A stretch of DNA of 64,000 bases from Bacteroidota bacterium (GTDB taxonomy: Bacteria; Bacteroidota; Ignavibacteria; Ignavibacteriales; Melioribacteraceae), in contig JAHISP010000014.1 in NCBI GenBank assembly GCA_018818165.1, forward strand, positions 11,875-75,874. Direction: 5' to 3'. Both the position numbers and the translations under genes were made by a program. Shown here piece after piece: positions 34,586-40,295 of this stretch. How positions within the stretch are numbered: position 1 is the stretch's first letter; each line of letters begins with the position of its first letter. The notes below the pieces were generated by a model. That model searched no databases, was not told where the DNA came from, and worked only from the letters and a program-made list of their open reading frames with translations.

Positions 34586-34695
34586 AATTTCTCCAAAGTT
34601 ATTTTTTACTTTTATTGTGCTAAATTTAGTAAAAAAATAGAAAATTTAAACTCTTAAATTGCTCTATCTGGTTTCTAGAGTTTTTTAACATATTG

Positions 34696-34898
34696 TTTGC
34701 ATAAAAAGATTATAATAACTAATTTTTGCAAAGATATTTAGTAAATGAGGTTAATGAATTACTCTGCTTTACTTACCCCAAATTATTAACCGAAAATTGT
34801 GTGAATAAACAAAAAGGTGGAACGTTATAATGCAAAAATTTGCTTGATAACATTCCAAATTGCAACATTTTGTTGCGGATTAATATATAGTTAGTTGC
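34696..34898 (+). repeat. Left-boundary partial/rearranged junction unit
   Basis: 34696-34728 (TTTGCATAAAAAGATTATAATAACTAATTTTTG) and about 34732-34760 match the 3' part of the full units. An AACGTTATAA remnant lies at 34821-34830. The unit ends in G|TTAGTTGC (34890-34898). Confidence 0.6.
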
Positions 34899-34912
34899 TT
34901 AAAGGAGTTTCT

Positions 34913-35368
34913 ATGAAAAAAAATGTAATCATTTTTACTTTCCTTTTAACTGGAATTGTTTTTTGTCAGTCTTCAATTACTGTTAATAAATTAAGCACAT
35001 TTCCTGAGGATTATATTAATAAGGAAATATCATTTAAAGATATTTGGTGGTATCCAACCTTGGCTAGCTATAAAAACGATATTGATGGAAAAACATATTA
35101 TCAAGTAATGTTACAAATTAGTGCCTCAAATGAAGAAAAACATTTTGGAATGGGAGGCATGGATAAAATTATGGGAGTTGTAAACAAAAACATTGCTATG
35201 GAATTAACGAATGATAATAAGAATGGCTATGTTTATAATTATTTAGGGGATGTTTTTGGCAAAGTGATTAAGACGAAAACATTTGGAAGCGAATACTTTT
35301 TTGTAATTAAAAAAATCATTCATCATTCCCCTGAAGGAATCATAATAAAAACTTATAATAGTAAATGA
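34913..35368 (+). CDS. Cassette 1a: small secreted protein, unknown function
   Basis: ATG at 34913 preceded by AAAGGAG. Signal peptide MKKNVIIFTFLLTGIVFCQ. The stop overlaps the start of the next ORF (ATGA). Confidence 0.7.
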   Translation: MKKNVIIFTFLLTGIVFCQSSITVNKLSTFPEDYINKEISFKDIWWYPTLASYKNDIDGKTYYQVMLQISASNEEKHFGMGGMDKIMGVVNKNIAMELTNDNKNGYVYNYLGDVFGKVIKTKTFGSEYFFVIKKIIHHSPEGIIIKTYNSK

Positions 35369-35967
35369 TGATGGATATTTTTAGAAAAATCCCACATAAT
35401 TTATATCGAGGTGATTCAGACTCTCGAAACGAGAGAAAGCTAAAACAAACAATTAATCAAAACTGTCTTCTAACAAATTTGAGTAACTCTGGTAGTGGCA
35501 GAGAAATTTTCAGTAATCCACTTAAAAATTTAGTCTCAAAACACATTTCTCCTGGCTGGAGCAAAACCCATTTCTTATCATTTTCGGAAAGCAAAAAAAT
35601 TAGTATAAAGTATGGTAGTAGACAGAACAATAATTGTATTTTAACAAATTTGGACGACTGGGATTTCGTTGTTATAGTTTTTTCTAAGGAATTTATAATT
35701 AAAGAAACAATTAGAGAAACTGATGAGGGATGTTTCATTTTGGAATTTTGTACTGCCTCATTAGAATTCCATCCAGTTTATAAATTACTTGCTATAAATG
35801 TTTACATCTATCTTTGTTCTAAAAATGCGGATAATAATCTCAAAGAAAAAGCAAAGTTAGATAAGGAGTGGTTATTACTTCCCTTAAATCGTTTTGAGAA
35901 TGAATATACAAGCAAATTGGATATGTGTTGTATTTCTTCAGTAGAAAAATATAAATCCATATACTAA
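35365..35967 (+). CDS. Cassette 1b: 200-aa cytoplasmic protein, unknown function (weak R-S-E ADP-ribosyltransferase-like pattern)
   Basis: Translationally coupled to cassette 1a. Contains LYRGD, HFLSFSES and later acidic residues (DKEWLLLP). The family assignment is speculative. Confidence 0.6.
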   Translation: MMMDIFRKIPHNLYRGDSDSRNERKLKQTINQNCLLTNLSNSGSGREIFSNPLKNLVSKHISPGWSKTHFLSFSESKKISIKYGSRQNNNCILTNLDDWDFVVIVFSKEFIIKETIRETDEGCFILEFCTASLEFHPVYKLLAINVYIYLCSKNADNNLKEKAKLDKEWLLLPLNRFENEYTSKLDMCCISSVEKYKSIY

Positions 35968-35982
35968 GTTTTAATAAATGGC

Positions 35983-36379
35983 GCAACTAACGTTATAAGG
36001 ATTGATACCGAACGGAGCTGAGGTATAATCCGGTGTTGAGCTAAGCCGCAGCTACTACTTGTAATTTGCTTAAATGTTTTTAGGGGTGGGGTTATTTTAT
36101 TTTACTACAATTTTACTTTTGCTATGAGTTGTTTTGAATTACAAAAACCTTCGAGGTTATTGCCAAATTAGAAATTGTTTGTGAAGATACAACCTTTATA
36201 AATTAAAAAACCTCGAAGGTTTGGGCGTATTGCAAAAAAATAATAATTTGCTAAAAAAGATTATAATAACTAATTTTTGTCCACAAAGGTTGATATGTAT
36301 TTAAGTGGGATGAAATGAATAAATGTGGATTTATGTTTTTTTGCTTATTTACGGATGAAATTCTTTAAAGTTATACCTA
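35983..36379 (+). repeat. Junction unit U1 (full, ~0.4 kb): module A + module B
   Basis: Starts GCAACTAAC|GTTATAAGGATTGATACC 16 nt after the stop codon and ends ...AATTCTTTAAAG|TTATACCTA. From 36076 on it looks ~95% identical by eye to U2. Confidence 0.85.
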
Positions 36380-36389
36380 GTAAAAAATA

Positions 36390-37325
36390 ATGGAGACAAA
36401 ATTGAAAGTTGAAGCGAATAATGCACTATTCATCAAGTTAGGTTCAAAAGGTCGTTGGCAAAACGAATGTATTGAGAAAAATATAATAAAATTGGGTTTT
36501 GTTAGCTCTCTTGAAATACATAAAAAAAGTTTAAATAGAGAGTGGGATAGTGTAAAAAAATATTGGCTTAAAGAAAAAAAGAGAAAAGCAGAAGCAACAA
36601 AAATTGCTAATCAAATTAAATATTTTTATGAATGTGATGAAGATACACTTTGGATAACTTTTATAGATAAAAAACTTTATTGGTGTTTTGCAGAAAGTGG
36701 AGTTACGATCTTAAATGATGGAAACAGAATAAGAAAAGTTAAAGGGAAATGGAGTTGTAAAGATATTGAAGGTAATGTATTATTTGACGAAAATATTGGT
36801 GGAGCTATTGCACAAGTCCAAAGGTTTCAAGGGACAATTTGTAAGGTTTCTGCAAAAGAACAGTTATTGGACATAATTAATCTTAATAAATCAAATGATT
36901 TAAGAAATGCTGAAAATATTTTTGCTAATCTAAAGGGTAGTATTGTACCATTAATTAAAAATCTACATTGGAAAGATTTTGAATTACTTGTTGATTTAAT
37001 TTTCACGTCTTCTGGTTGGAGGAGAATTTCTGTTGTTGGGAAAGCTGAAAAGGACGTTGATCTAGAGTTGATGCAAAATGTAACCGAGGAAAAAGCATTT
37101 GTTCAAATAAAATCTAGATCAACAATGAAAGAATTTAATGACTACATTCAGATATATAAAAGAGAGAAGCAGTATAATAAAATGTATTTTGTAGTAAATA
37201 ATCTTTCAAAAGATTTTAGTGGGTGGAAAGATACAAATGAAATTAAATTACTCGATAATGAAAAGCTTTCACTATTAGTTCTTAATTCTGGATTAGTTAA
37301 TTGGTTATTTAAAAAATCAAAATAG
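36390..37325 (+). CDS. Cassette 2: Mrr-type (PD-(D/E)xK) restriction-endonuclease-like domain with an unknown N-terminal domain
   Basis: The C-terminal FELLVDLIFTSSGWRRISVVGKAEKDVDLEL...AFVQIKSRS fits the Mrr_cat pattern (D...E/QxK). The ~190 N-terminal aa are not recognised. Confidence 0.65.
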   Translation: METKLKVEANNALFIKLGSKGRWQNECIEKNIIKLGFVSSLEIHKKSLNREWDSVKKYWLKEKKRKAEATKIANQIKYFYECDEDTLWITFIDKKLYWCFAESGVTILNDGNRIRKVKGKWSCKDIEGNVLFDENIGGAIAQVQRFQGTICKVSAKEQLLDIINLNKSNDLRNAENIFANLKGSIVPLIKNLHWKDFELLVDLIFTSSGWRRISVVGKAEKDVDLELMQNVTEEKAFVQIKSRSTMKEFNDYIQIYKREKQYNKMYFVVNNLSKDFSGWKDTNEIKLLDNEKLSLLVLNSGLVNWLFKKSK

Positions 37326-37762
37326 GTATAACGTTATAAGGATTGATACCGAACCCCACAAAAAGAACGGGGTAAACTCCGCTGAGGTATATCACTTTGT
37401 GAGAGCTAAGCCGCAGCTACGACTTGTAATTTGCTTTTATGTTTTTTGGGGTAGGGTTATTTTATTTTACTACAATTTTACTTTTGCTATGAGTTGTTTT
37501 GAATTACAAAAACCTTCGAGGTTATTGCCAAATAAGAAATTGTTTATGAAGACACAACTTTTATAAATTAAAAACCTCGAAGGTTTGGGCGTATTGTAAA
37601 AAAAATAATAATTTGCTAAAAAATATTATAATAACTAATTTTTGTCCACAAATGTTGATAGTATTTAATTGGGATGAAATGAATGAATATGGTTTTTTTT
37701 GCTCATTTCCAGACCTGTCCTCCAGTTTTTATGGTGGATAAAATTCTTTAAAGTTAGCCCAT
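37323..37762 (+). repeat. Junction unit U2 (full, ~0.44 kb): module A + module B
   Basis: Starts TAGGTATAAC|GTTATAAGGATTGATACC, where the TAG is the upstream stop codon. Ends ...AATTCTTTAAAG|TTAGCCCAT. Relative to U1 it has a 24-nt insertion in module A and a ~30-nt insertion near the 3' end. Confidence 0.85.
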
Positions 37763-37784
37763 ATAATCAAAAAGGAGAACGCAC

Positions 37785-38231
37785 ATGAACTATGCGCGAA
37801 TGTTTCACAAGATAGGATCGTGGTCTTACGTGCTTCTTGGCATTGGCCATATCGCAACCCATTTGTTTTCACCTAAAACGCCTGAACAAGAGCAAATGAT
37901 TTTGCGCATGAAAGATTTTGCCATCGACATGCCAGGACCAGATTCAACGCTTTTTTTGTTCCATGAAGGCTTCAGCTTAATGATGGGTGTATTACTAATT
38001 AGTTATGGGATAGCAAATATTCTTTTCCTTTCATCGGATAGCCTCGACTCATTGACAAACAAACATATTGCTATGCTAAACATAATTGTCTCTTTAGTGG
38101 CAATGATTTTATCTGCAGTTTATTTTTTTATTGTACCAATTGCGTTCACCACTGCGTCACTCATAGCATTCGGGTTGGCGTTTGGTCTAACGCGTCGTTC
38201 CACCAGACGCACAAAAGCAGCGCGCCAGTGA
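37785..38231 (+). CDS. Cassette 3: 148-aa four-TM membrane protein, visibly GC-richer than its surroundings
   Basis: A strong SD (AAAGGAG) lies 8 nt upstream. Hydrophobic segments and a basic tail RRSTRRTKAARQ. Composition looks roughly 40+% GC by eye, against about one-third elsewhere. Confidence 0.7.
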   Translation: MNYARMFHKIGSWSYVLLGIGHIATHLFSPKTPEQEQMILRMKDFAIDMPGPDSTLFLFHEGFSLMMGVLLISYGIANILFLSSDSLDSLTNKHIAMLNIIVSLVAMILSAVYFFIVPIAFTTASLIAFGLAFGLTRRSTRRTKAARQ

Positions 38232-38318
38232 ACCTAAACGTTATGTACAAATACTAATTAATATTTTTTATTGTCTATATCTGCAAAACGTCTATTTTGA
38301 AAAGGAAGTTTAATCTTT

Positions 38319-39284
38319 ATGTTAAAAAATCTATATCCATTATATCCTTATGGTAAACTTGATGTTCAGTCAGAAGCAATTCTTCAAGAGATAGCAAAAT
38401 CGAATGGAAAACCCCTTGCTTCTATGACACCCAAAGAAGCTAGGGAATGTTTTTTGGAAAATTCATGGCTTGGAGCGCCTGACAAAAGCATCCAAATAAA
38501 AAATATTTATATCGATAATTCCGATAGTAATATTCCATTACGTATTTATACGCCAGAAGGGGAAGCGCCATTCCCAATACTTCTATTTTTTCATGGTGGA
38601 GGATTTGTGTTAGGCACTTTAGACGAGTTTGATTCATTTTGCACATTTCTGGCTAGTGGAGCTAACTGCATAGTAGTTTCTGTTGGTTATCGTTTGGCTC
38701 CGGAGAACAAACATCCAGCCGCTGTTGAAGATGCTCAAACTGCACTTAATTGGATTGCTGTCAACGCTTCTAAAATTCAAGGTGATGTTTCTCGAATTGC
38801 AGTTGCCGGAGATAGTGCCGGTGCTAATTTAGCTGCGGTAGCTTCTTTAATTGCACGAGACAAATCATTTCCAACATTACTTTGCCAAATACTCATTTGT
38901 CCTTGGCTTAATCTTTCGTCAACAGAGACAAATTCATATAAATATTTCGGAAATGGATTATGGCTCTCAACTACCAATATTCATTGGTATCGTAATCACT
39001 ATTTAAAAAACGATGATCAAGCAAAAACATATTTAGCCTCACCGTTGCTAGCAAAAAAACTAAGTGGATTGCCTTTCACGTTAATTATTACTGCCGAATA
39101 TGATGTATTGAGAGACGAAGGAGAATCATATGCAAATCGTTTGGAAGAAGAATCCGTCGTTGTGAAATACACAAATTATAAGGGAATGCTTCATGATTTT
39201 GTTATGTTACCGGGAATATTTAACAAGGCAAAAGAAGCCATAAATGAAATATGTTCAACGTTAAGAATGATTTTTAAAAATTAA
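38319..39284 (+). CDS. Cassette 4: alpha/beta-hydrolase esterase/lipase, hormone-sensitive-lipase (family IV) type
   Basis: Oxyanion motif FFHGGGF, nucleophile elbow GDSAGAN, acid DVLRDEG and His in MLHDF. Confidence 0.9.
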   Translation: MLKNLYPLYPYGKLDVQSEAILQEIAKSNGKPLASMTPKEARECFLENSWLGAPDKSIQIKNIYIDNSDSNIPLRIYTPEGEAPFPILLFFHGGGFVLGTLDEFDSFCTFLASGANCIVVSVGYRLAPENKHPAAVEDAQTALNWIAVNASKIQGDVSRIAVAGDSAGANLAAVASLIARDKSFPTLLCQILICPWLNLSSTETNSYKYFGNGLWLSTTNIHWYRNHYLKNDDQAKTYLASPLLAKKLSGLPFTLIITAEYDVLRDEGESYANRLEEESVVVKYTNYKGMLHDFVMLPGIFNKAKEAINEICSTLRMIFKN

Positions 39285-39329
39285 AGAGCGTTTCTCATTA
39301 CTAATTTCAATTTGGAAATTGTACTTAAT

Positions 39330-39432
39330 TTTATAAGGATTGATACCGAATCCCACAAAAAGAACGGGGTAAACTCTGCTGAGGTATATCACTTTGTACG
39401 AGCTAAGCCGCAACCACTACTTGTAATTTGCT
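39330..39432 (+). repeat. Junction element copy 3 (module A only)
   Basis: TTTATAAGGATTGATACCGAATCCCACAAAAAGAACGGGGTAAACTCTGCTGAGGTATATCAC...GAGCTAAGCCGCAACCACTACTTGTAATTTGCT. Aligns with 37333-37435 with a few substitutions. Module B is absent. Confidence 0.85.
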
Positions 39433-39483
39433 ATGGCGTTTTATATGTTGCAGGGCAAACGCAACGTAAATCATAAAAAATAA

Positions 39484-39801
39484 TTAGGAAGAAATGGTTC
39501 TTGCAATTTCTTTATTTGATGTTCCAAGAGCCAATAACGACCTAATAATTAAATCTATTGATACCGACGGATCGCCAGTTTCTAATTTTGCAACTCTTGA
39601 TTGACTTGATTTAATCATTCTCGCAAATTCTATTTGTGTTAATTTTCGGTCAATTCGCAATTTTCTTAAATTGGCACTCAACTTTAGTTTCAAATCAATA
39701 TATGATTCTTCTTCTTCGGTTAGTCCAAGAAAATCTTTTACTGAACCAATTTTCCAACCTTTTTTCTCAAGTATTTCTTGTTTTTCACTAGTCATTGTCA
39801 T
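39484..39801 (-). CDS. higA: HigA-like antitoxin (XRE-family HTH)
   Basis: HTH LTQIEFARMIKSSQSRVAKLE. Lies downstream of, and overlaps, the toxin gene (the reversed TA order typical of higBA). Confidence 0.75.
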   Translation of the reverse strand: MTMTSEKQEILEKKGWKIGSVKDFLGLTEEEESYIDLKLKLSANLRKLRIDRKLTQIEFARMIKSSQSRVAKLETGDPSVSIDLIIRSLLALGTSNKEIARTISS

Positions 39802-40120
39802 ATTCCTTAATTCTTTTTTTGCATACATCAATTACGGCTTTAGGTGTTTGTTGTGTTTTCTTGTTAAAAACATCAAGAATTACAATTGCATCACTATCAA
39901 TTCTATAAATAATTCGCCAAGTAACATTTTCATCATTTATTCTAAGTTCATGGCAATTTTTACCAATACTTGGTATTGGTCTTGAATGAGGCATACTCAA
40001 CTTTTCTTCCATTTGAAGCAACCTGAAAAGAAATCCAGCTTCAATTCTTGCCGAAGCAGAAAAGGGGGGAGTTTTAATTTCTCCATACAGCCAAATAAGA
40101 GGTTTATCAGGTTTTTTCAT
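39788..40120 (-). CDS. higB: HigB/Gp49-like RelE-superfamily toxin
   Basis: Start taken at the ATG at 40120 (MKKPDKPLIW). The pattern ...SIGKNCHELRINDENVTWRIIYRIDSDAIVILDVFNKKTQQTPK matches Gp49/HigB-type toxins. Confidence 0.7.
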   Translation of the reverse strand: MKKPDKPLIWLYGEIKTPPFSASARIEAGFLFRLLQMEEKLSMPHSRPIPSIGKNCHELRINDENVTWRIIYRIDSDAIVILDVFNKKTQQTPKAVIDVCKKRIKEYDND

Positions 40121-40131
40121 ATTATAAATAT

Positions 40132-40147
40132 ATGTCAAATATGACAT
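40132..40147. promoter_or_regulatory. Palindromic candidate operator in the TA promoter
   Basis: ATGTCA-AATA-TGACAT, a perfect 6-bp inverted repeat 12 nt upstream of the toxin ATG. Confidence 0.4.
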
Positions 40148-40234
40148 AATTTCAACAAAATAAACCAAAAGGTAGAGATAAAAGTTTACAAAATGGGCTT
40201 ATTGAAGACTCGATTAAACAGTCAAGGCAAGAAA

Positions 40235-40295
40235 ACATAACATTTTAATTAAAACTAAAAAAACAAAAAATTTAAGTTCTAAAATTCCGTTATGT
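40235..40295. repeat. 61-nt attC-like imperfect hairpin at the right edge of the array
   Basis: ACATAAC-ATTTTA ... TAAAAT-TCC-GTTATGT. The 7-nt outer boxes (..AAC / GTT..) are perfectly complementary, the inner 6-nt boxes pair with a 3-nt bulge, and the centre is A-rich. Confidence 0.45.

Follow-up and report, generated by a model that had tools for sequence, protein, structure and literature searches.

A long mosaic attC-like junction with a promoter-like block in an integrase-less cassette array of an Ignavibacteriaceae genome

The cassette array and its junction units

The 64,000-nt stretch of DNA analysed here (hereafter the window) comes from a member of the Ignavibacteriaceae and contains, between 34.9 and 40.2 kb, a cassette array whose open reading frames (ORFs) all share one orientation and are, by ORF map and Pfam, mutually unrelated. 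Two unknown ORFs, an Mrr-type nuclease, a membrane protein, an alpha/beta hydrolase (esterase) and a Gp49/HTH toxin-antitoxin pair make up its content, the ORF calls being crude ones from the analysis scripts. Housekeeping-type genes flank the array on both sides, and the gene upstream of cassette 1 is divergently transcribed. Two long junction units, the subject of this report, sit directly 3' of cassette ORFs and separate unrelated, co-oriented cassettes, the location typical of the attC recombination sites of integrons. Each is composed of a Module A and a Module B, the latter having been singled out in a preliminary description of this DNA as one conserved spacer with a long-range hairpin and a promoter-like block. 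Searches of the genome (105 contigs, 31.5% G+C, with the window array on contig C61) employed the whole unit and then its pieces as queries.

Unit 1 (392 nt) spans 35985-36376, from an inverse core R'' at 35985-35991 to a core R' at 36370-36376, while unit 2 (434 nt) spans 37326-37759, from R'' at 37326-37332 to R' at 37753-37759; the features annotated in both units and at the left boundary of the array are all on the + strand. Unit 1 is opened by GCAACTAAC (35983-35991), which also ends cassette 1, and continues with Module A and the first part of Module B, B1 (35992-36136, delimited through DNA searches of this genome and its relatives and a 15-copy alignment). The central block B2+B3 (36137-36315) and the leader segment B4 (36296-36369, from a 12-copy alignment) complete the unit, B4 ending in AATTCTTTAAAG as the L'-like side. 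The first bases of the Mrr-nuclease cassette, GTTATACCTA (36370-36379), comprise the R' core and a cassette-specific extension, ahead of an ATG at 36390. Unit 2 starts with the R'' of the Mrr cassette, TAGGTATAAC (37323-37332), followed by a long form of Module A with B1 (37333-37501), by B2+B3 (37502-37679) and by a long form of B4 (37660-37759) that includes a 25-nt insertion and ends ...TTCTTTAAAG|TTAGCC; the following cassette has its ATG at 37785. The two full copies of Module B share 90-95% identity, confirming that they are indeed copies of one another.

Boundaries, left edge and size of the attC-like sites

The inverse core R'', (A/T)TAAC, is found ahead of every Module A and R', GTTA(T/G)RY, behind every B4, and these ends fit the attC rule RYYYAAC / GTTRRRY. 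Across the approximately 12 genomic copies of B4, homology halts exactly at ...TTCTTTAAAG|TTA (AAAG|TTA), beyond which lies unrelated sequence and then, within a few dozen bases, an ORF; the B4 end itself may pair with GTTATAAGGATT at the start of Module A. The beginning of each cassette is complementary to its own inverse core. In cassette 1, GTTAGTTGC (34890-34898) pairs at 9/9 positions with GCAACTAAC, and in the Mrr cassette GTTATACCTA pairs at 10/10 positions with TAGGTATAAC. Likewise, GTTATACCTAA and TTAGGTATAAC of a cassette at 397 kb of contig C35 are complementary at 11/11 positions, and in a related metagenome-assembled genome (MAG) the corresponding figures are 11/11 for an esterase cassette and 10/11 for a Doc cassette. 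Since these complementary extensions vary from cassette to cassette, the second half of R' moving with its cassette, they are a signature of integron cassettes and not of transposon ends. Module B falls inside the attC-like site, upstream of the G|TT crossover.

Two other ways of dividing the sequence were considered and rejected. The junction units are not separate gene-less cassettes, since they end ...TAAAG and not ...AAC. Nor is there a miniature attC within Module A (R'', the P1 hairpin, then GTTGAGC), as R'' is complementary to the bases that follow B4 and not to GTTGAGC.

At its left edge the array has an attI-like site (34822-34898) in which an internal GTTAT...ATAAC inverted repeat is followed by GGATTAATATATA|GTTAGTTGC (34878-34898), the first cassette beginning at 34890. 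This boundary aligns with the DNA immediately 3' of an intact integron integrase gene, intI, in the same-genus genome G001 (...GGGTTAATATATA|GTTAGTTGCC), and further aligning copies are present on contigs C26 and C54. The intact intI of G001 is followed by attI and then by attC sites of about 185 nt ending nnnTAAC / GTTAnnn. Integron integrases scoring above the NCBIfam curated cut-off were found in 18 of 41 genomes (40 relatives plus the present genome), whose own copy, split by an insertion sequence (IS) and other insertions, falls below it with 259.6 bits against 265. This sole integron-integrase gene of the genome is a pseudogene with pieces at C85:104870-106339 and C69:15101-15742. Its N-terminal part is on C69 and its middle part on C85, an IS (IstB-like ORF, TGAAAAYTGACCAC ends) being present at both breaks, and the C-terminal pieces are kept apart by small repeated insertions.

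The cassette-specific inverted repeats, the intact integrases of relatives and the homology of the left boundary to a same-genus attI together support the interpretation of Modules A and B as an attC-like junction, of 392 or 434 nt, in an integrase-less cassette array. Subtraction of the 179-nt B2+B3 block from the units leaves about 213 nt, a size usual for the family, whose attC sites measure 185-230 nt (about 185 nt in G001, about 225 nt in G014 from another genus). With its own R' restored, a unit folded as DNA without constraint closes via the R box and adjacent TTA/TAA and AAG/CTT pairs on both strands. Candidate L boxes were also seen, TTA[T]AAGGATT pairing with AATTCTT-TAA in the folds, at a modest p of 0.03-0.06 against dinucleotide shuffles. 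Aligning the unit half against half yields a z of about 3.8, and the whole-unit fold a z of -1.4 to -1.5. The alignment signal comes from the ends and from B2, the interior halves B1-B3 not being significantly complementary (p 0.6-0.8), and the idea of the unit as one long palindrome was accordingly discarded; mutual pairing of the two insertions in unit 2 is not significant either (p 0.31). At their boundaries, then, the units agree with attC sites, and in size and palindromic character they do not.

The closest known counterparts are the attC sites of sedentary chromosomal integrons, such as the Vibrio cholerae repeats (VCRs), and the CALIN arrays (Cury et al. 2016, PMC4889954). Shared with these are near-identical repeats between unrelated, co-oriented, promoterless cassettes, ...AAC / GTT... 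ends with a cassette start complementary to its own inverse core, an attI-like head, toxin-antitoxin cassettes and the lack of an adjoining integrase. The units described here differ in measuring 392 and 434 nt, compared to 57-141 nt for known sites with a variable terminal structure (VTS) of 20-100 nt (PMC4889954). They differ also in having an interior that is a mosaic of separable modules instead of one imperfect palindrome, and in belonging to Ignavibacteriaceae, where ordinary attC sites already reach 185-230 nt.

The island from 34595 to 40270, comprising the attI-like site, the cassettes and a terminal site, is missing from the same-genus genomes G005 and G006, in which only about 170 nt separate a DUF2461 gene from a kinase gene and homology is regained at about 40266. 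That point lies inside the right arm of the short, 56-nt attC-like site that closes the array (40233-40288; AACATAAC...GTTATGTT, with 8-nt self-complementary ends), an arm overlapping what is, in relatives, native sequence of the kinase promoter region. The 148-aa and esterase cassettes have no junction unit between them and meet at a bare junction, CCTAAAC|GTTATG (38232-38250). It is kept in the MAG (L057:2680-2700) and looks as if an entire attC had been removed precisely at its stem base.

A mosaic interior

Module B had been proposed to be one conserved spacer; it is instead a mosaic of sub-modules with independent distributions. B1 (36076-36135) always accompanies Module A, and A+B1 (35988-36136; query positions 4-152) is a single module that recurs whole in this genome and in relatives, Module A having some 15 genomic copies, 4 of them with B1. 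B2+B3 is a 179-nt block shared by both window units and by two units in another array, on contig C76. B3 is encountered without B2 at C76:4456, C31:4207, C35:405321 and the window left boundary, and a B2-like hairpin without B3 at C31:110627, 9 nt past a stop codon. The preliminary description had proposed looking for hairpin and block in other genomes. Scans of genome collections and metagenomes returned B2+B3, outside this genome, only from one Ignavibacteriaceae MAG and from one metagenome contig (Ga0180007_10004068) that matches C76, so that the sequence diversity available for the block is small. Same-genus genomes contain A+B1 and B4 many times and B2+B3 not at all, their units carrying other interiors.

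The occurrence of the 179-nt block in two unrelated junction types, the A/B4 units of C61 and the GCTGTCGAGGA...GGACAGC units of C76, is what would be expected if B2+B3 were a small mobile element, akin to a miniature inverted-repeat transposable element, inserting into junction units independently. Comparison of the block edges between C61 and C76 or C31 reveals neither terminal inverted repeats nor a target-site duplication. Moreover, each half exists without the other, so the block is not an obligate unit, and we find this explanation barely credible. The array on C76 (3950-8900, - strand; also on Ga0180007_10004068) is itself cassette-like, with junctions of the form GCTGTCGAGGA-N4-TCCTCGACA ... 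GGACAGCATG that lack AAC/GTT ends yet host the same B2+B3 block.

The perfect 14-nt arms described for Module B were upheld, AAACCTTCGAGGTT...AACCTCGAAGGTTT being exact at 36145-36222 and 37510-37586 and matched in 0 of 100 shuffles. In unit 1 the arms (36145-36158 and 36209-36222) enclose a 50-nt loop within an extended hairpin at 36132-36238, the RNA fold of which has a z of -4.4 to -5.2 on both strands, with none of 200 shuffles as good; in unit 2 they are at 37510-37523 and 37573-37586. The hairpin is centred on its unit (36183 against 36180 in unit 1), the centres agreeing within 3-6 nt in the units. A search of Rfam over 30-45 kb at E <= 1 gave only two sub-threshold matches, to rliG and to a plant miRNA model on the hairpin, both taken as spurious.

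The arms of B2, AACCTTCGAGGTT and AACCTCGAAGGTT, are members of a family of AAACCTYSRAGGTTT inverted pairs found throughout the genome. Including both B2 copies, 29 perfect pairs are present, the arms varying while their complementarity is maintained. Tight pairs, with loops of 5-6 nt, account for 19 of the 29, and roughly half of those are 5-35 nt past the stop codons of ORFs with 100 aa or more, a position suggestive of intrinsic terminators or elements like the repetitive extragenic palindromes (REP). This family recalls REP elements and bacterial interspersed mosaic elements (BIME), as well as paired uptake-sequence-like terminators, in that the B2 arms match genome-wide AAACCTYSRAGGTTT pairs of which most lie just past stop codons. 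In contrast to the tight members and to those known elements, B2 has a loop of 49-50 nt, is about 180 nt past the stop codon and has no sense-strand T-run: GGGCG comes after the stem on the + strand, TTTTTG on the - strand. Because only the minus strand has a T-run behind the stem, B2 appears better suited to terminating antisense transcripts, or may simply be the stable apex of a folded site.

Through some 15 copies of B4 runs an upstream ORF (uORF) of 16-25 codons (e.g. MNECGLIFFCSFPDKIL), which in unit 1 has 17 codons (36315-36368) with its TAA inside CTTTAAAG. The short-form copies all share this TAA stop in CTTTAAAG, with 1 nt left to the G|TT crossover, an arrangement resembling ORF-11 of attI1. 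Frames vary among the long-form copies, so a conserved peptide is not supported.

Module A has a hairpin of its own (window 35998-36032; L039:1806-1840 on contig C80 of G001; C35:396700), in which the pairs ATACC/GGTAT, ATCTC/GAGAT and ATGTC/GACAT replace one another. These compensatory changes mark it as an apparently selected structure. An optional insertion of 24-26 nt in Module A falls exactly in the loop of this inner hairpin.

A promoter-like block facing the next cassette

B3 contains the block for which a likeness to promoters of the Bacteroidota type had been noted. In Flavobacterium such promoters read TTG-N17-23-TANNTTTG, the -7 box occupying positions -12..-5 (PMC9723704), and a related sigma factor is documented in the literature for Chlorobi. 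The host uses this type: the regions upstream of its tRNA genes show TTG-N20-TAnnTTTG, and in 687 kb of intergenic DNA the spacing of TTG-N-TAnnTTTG peaks at N=20 (76 against about 36). TTG-N17-TATAAT has no spacing peak in the same DNA, and a sigma-70 scan gave matches no more numerous than in shuffles. Shine-Dalgarno motifs are also used by the host.

The block, TTTGCWWAAAAAKATTATAATAACTAATTTTTG, is exact at 34696-34728, 36247-36279 and 37612-37644, with none expected by chance; all three positions first reported for it are thus real, save that the third had been placed 10 nt too early, at 37602-37634. The left-boundary copy, an exact pattern match, comprises TTG at 34697-34699, N20 and TAATTTTTG at 34720-34728, while that of unit 1 has its -33 TTG at 36248-36250 and its -7 box at 36271-36279. 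In general form the block is TTG, exactly 20 nt and TAATTTTT(G), which matches 8/9 specified positions in either of two registers (5/6 in the -7 box) at the spacing that is the host mode, and one tRNA-Met promoter shares the TAnnnTTTG form at N20. The promoter likeness first noted therefore holds, and transcription starts are predicted from it at about 34732, 36283-36284 and 37648. The significance originally attached to a TATAAT hexamer in the block does not hold: it lacks a host-type partner at a usable spacing and is lost in diverged copies.

Contrary to the first impression that the block is the sole part of Module B kept at the left boundary, homology there continues past the block at lower identity, in a separate left-type family (window left, C54:64195, C26:27952 and G004:C150:3709). 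Its members retain TTTG and TAATTTTT(G/A) with the distance between them unaltered, whereas 6 of the 20 spacer positions differ and, in the diverged copies, TATAAT becomes AATTAT; by our own calculation the conservation of the boxes relative to the spacer has p ~0.04. Downstream of the block all four left-type leaders (window, C54:64250 (-), C26:28013 (+), G004:C150) keep an 11-codon uORF, MNYSALLTPNY* (variants S/C, A/T, T/A/P; window 34754-34789), with GAGG 3 nt ahead of its ATG.

The distance from the 5' edge of a cassette (G|TT) to its ATG is only 20-32 nt, so that the cassettes have no room for promoters of their own. Cassette 1, since the gene upstream of it is divergent, needs a promoter within 34586-34889, and the left-boundary block is found there, placed as Pc would be, some 160 nt ahead of the attI-like crossover. 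All three window copies and those on C76 and C31 face co-oriented ORFs. The G|TT edge follows the block at a distance of 91-109 nt, so the block is not within the cassette, where a cassette-borne (PcmlA-type) promoter would be. The suggestion that each cassette brings its own expression signal is therefore to be amended: the block is in the attC-like site of the preceding cassette, or in the left attI-like site, and would serve the downstream neighbour.

Taken together, these features lead us to consider it reasonably probable that Module B makes up the interior and the 3' half of an outsized, mosaic attC-like junction, in which B3 acts as a relay promoter toward the next, promoterless cassette. 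B1 would be the tail of Module A, B2+B3 a 179-nt block at the centre of the unit, and B4 a leader ending in the L'/R' side. B3 would be a sigma-A promoter of the Bacteroidota/Chlorobi type whose transcript begins about 5 nt past the block and crosses B4 and the crossover into a cassette with no promoter space. As the block is upstream of the crossover, in the site of the preceding cassette, such a promoter would form part of a relay and not of a self-contained cassette: every inserted cassette would supply expression for its downstream neighbour, and the copy in the attI-like site would act as Pc for cassette 1. More speculatively, B2 may have been borrowed from the host family of terminator or REP-like palindromes and serve as the stable apex of the folded site and as a transcriptional insulator. 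Ordinary homologous recombination between the near-identical units probably contributes to cassette shuffling as well.

Several observations weigh against this reading. The resident intI is a pseudogene, the units lie far beyond the published range of attC sizes, and their interiors fall short of the expected complementarity, with only the modest L-box pairing to set beside it. Matches at 8/9 promoter positions occur at 1.8 per kb of intergenic strand, making the match alone weak; the exact variants seen in the block (TAnnTTTT at N20, AAnnTTTG at N21) have no spacing peak of their own; and B1 holds another 8/9 match, with a perfect -7 box. B2, with its 50-nt loop, its 180-nt distance from the stop codon and its lack of a sense T-run, makes a poor sense-strand terminator, and published work indicates that attC sites do not terminate transcription. 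Finally, the MAG is collinear with the window through the B part of unit 2, the 148-aa cassette, the bare junction and the esterase cassette (94.9% over 2084 nt) and has a different upstream cassette, as if Module B had moved with the cassette downstream.

The last of these points is the basis of an alternative in which Module B is the 5' untranslated or promoter region of the following cassette, and the mobile unit, Module B plus ORF plus Module A, carries its own promoter. In the MAG a Doc-type toxin-antitoxin pair replaces the Mrr cassette, Module A is only about 87% identical, and informative sites shift from unit-1-like to unit-2-like within the B2 loop. However, the bases complementary to R'' are downstream of Module B and not upstream of it, at 36370-36379, at 34890-34898, at C35:397 kb and in the MAG alike, and none of the B4 copies shows homology beyond AAAG|TTA. 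The MAG pattern would be explained, with the boundary unmoved, by homologous recombination or gene conversion among units sharing about 94% identity, and we regard this alternative as quite improbable.

The frequency of 8/9 matches counts, too, in favour of a Module B with no role in expression, consisting of recombination-site filler and selfish repeats in decaying attC sites, its promoter likeness arising by chance in AT-rich DNA. The broken intI, which may leave the sites to decay, the abundance of mosaic intergenic repeats in the genome and the very narrow distribution of B2+B3 are all in keeping with such an origin, as is the B3 copy at C35:405321, which faces a convergent gene and has lost its final G. 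Set against it are the preservation of boxes and spacing across diverged copies while the spacer varies, the presence of the block in the only promoter-capable region before cassette 1, the co-oriented ORFs faced by the window, C76 and C31 copies, and the lack of promoter space in the cassettes. A chance origin is in our view unlikely, if by no means negligible, and were the block inactive the region would be a decaying, repeat-laden cassette array of modest interest.

Further comparisons bear on a relay promoter in the junction, the reading preferred here. In its favour, one canonical attC site of G001 contains a similarly oriented promoter match at 9/9 positions. The repeat consensus of the G014 attC interiors gave no clear match on inspection, indicating that attC-borne promoters are not general, and sequences weakly resembling the block in other families (G025, G028, G035) were set aside as AT-rich noise. 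The leader that follows the block is not unusually structured (z -0.8 and +1.0).

Integron cassettes are usually thought to depend on one platform promoter, distal cassettes being a silent stock. The class 1 integron Pc (reviewed in PMC8876359) drives promoterless cassettes from the platform side of the crossover, as the block would, and ORF-11 and ORF-17 of attI1 are comparable to the uORF of B4 in ending at or near the core site, a few nt before the cassette start codon. In the present array, unlike class 1 integrons, the putative block and uORF are repeated within the junctions between cassettes and not confined to attI. As regards the contrast initially drawn with classical promoterless cassettes, array-internal promoters are not unprecedented: gene-less promoter cassettes (Tansirichaiya 2019, PMC6557892; Blanco et al., bioRxiv 10.1101/2023.11.21.568050) and the cassette-borne PcmlA and Pqac free distal cassettes from Pc, and in one case, cassette F2, transcription has been mapped as starting within an attC. 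Those promoters are in the cassette body or 5' untranslated region, whereas the block is a conserved, repeated module in the recombination site of the upstream cassette. Group IIC-attC introns (PMC3001079) are a further parallel to the proposed role of the block, extra DNA within attC supplying a promoter toward the downstream cassette; in the units described here, by contrast, there are no intron features, nothing credible in Rfam and no reverse-transcriptase ORF. What is new is the 0.4-kb size of the site and the lodging of a promoter/hairpin block at its centre.

It is conceivable, though somewhat doubtful, that in Ignavibacteriaceae recombination sites have been turned into portable expression modules, each a recombining 0.4-kb attC equipped with a hairpin as insulator, a promoter acting as relay and a short leader ORF whose stop is 1 nt ahead of the crossover. 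Insertion of any cassette would then activate the one downstream of it, and distance from Pc would cease to matter for expression. A conserved promoter built into the junction, each cassette driving the next, would represent a different logic, in a phylum-level group whose integrons have barely been studied. Such sites would be twice the size limit of integron-finding software, with the result that their cassettes would be systematically missed; junctions of 0.4 kb are well past the published range of attC sizes, and similar arrays may go uncounted.

Two minor observations concern Module A. Within it, at 36002-36029, is a sigma-70-type match, TTGATA-N16-TATAAT (11/12), that is destroyed in the long form and is probably meaningless in a host without a spacing signal of the sigma-70 type. 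Elsewhere in the genome, copies of Module A at C22:268600-268900, C32:6600-7050, C32:10400-10800 and C35:251150-251550 are followed by tandem arrays of units of about 38 nt, each unit holding the palindrome GCAATTATCAAATGATAATTGC.

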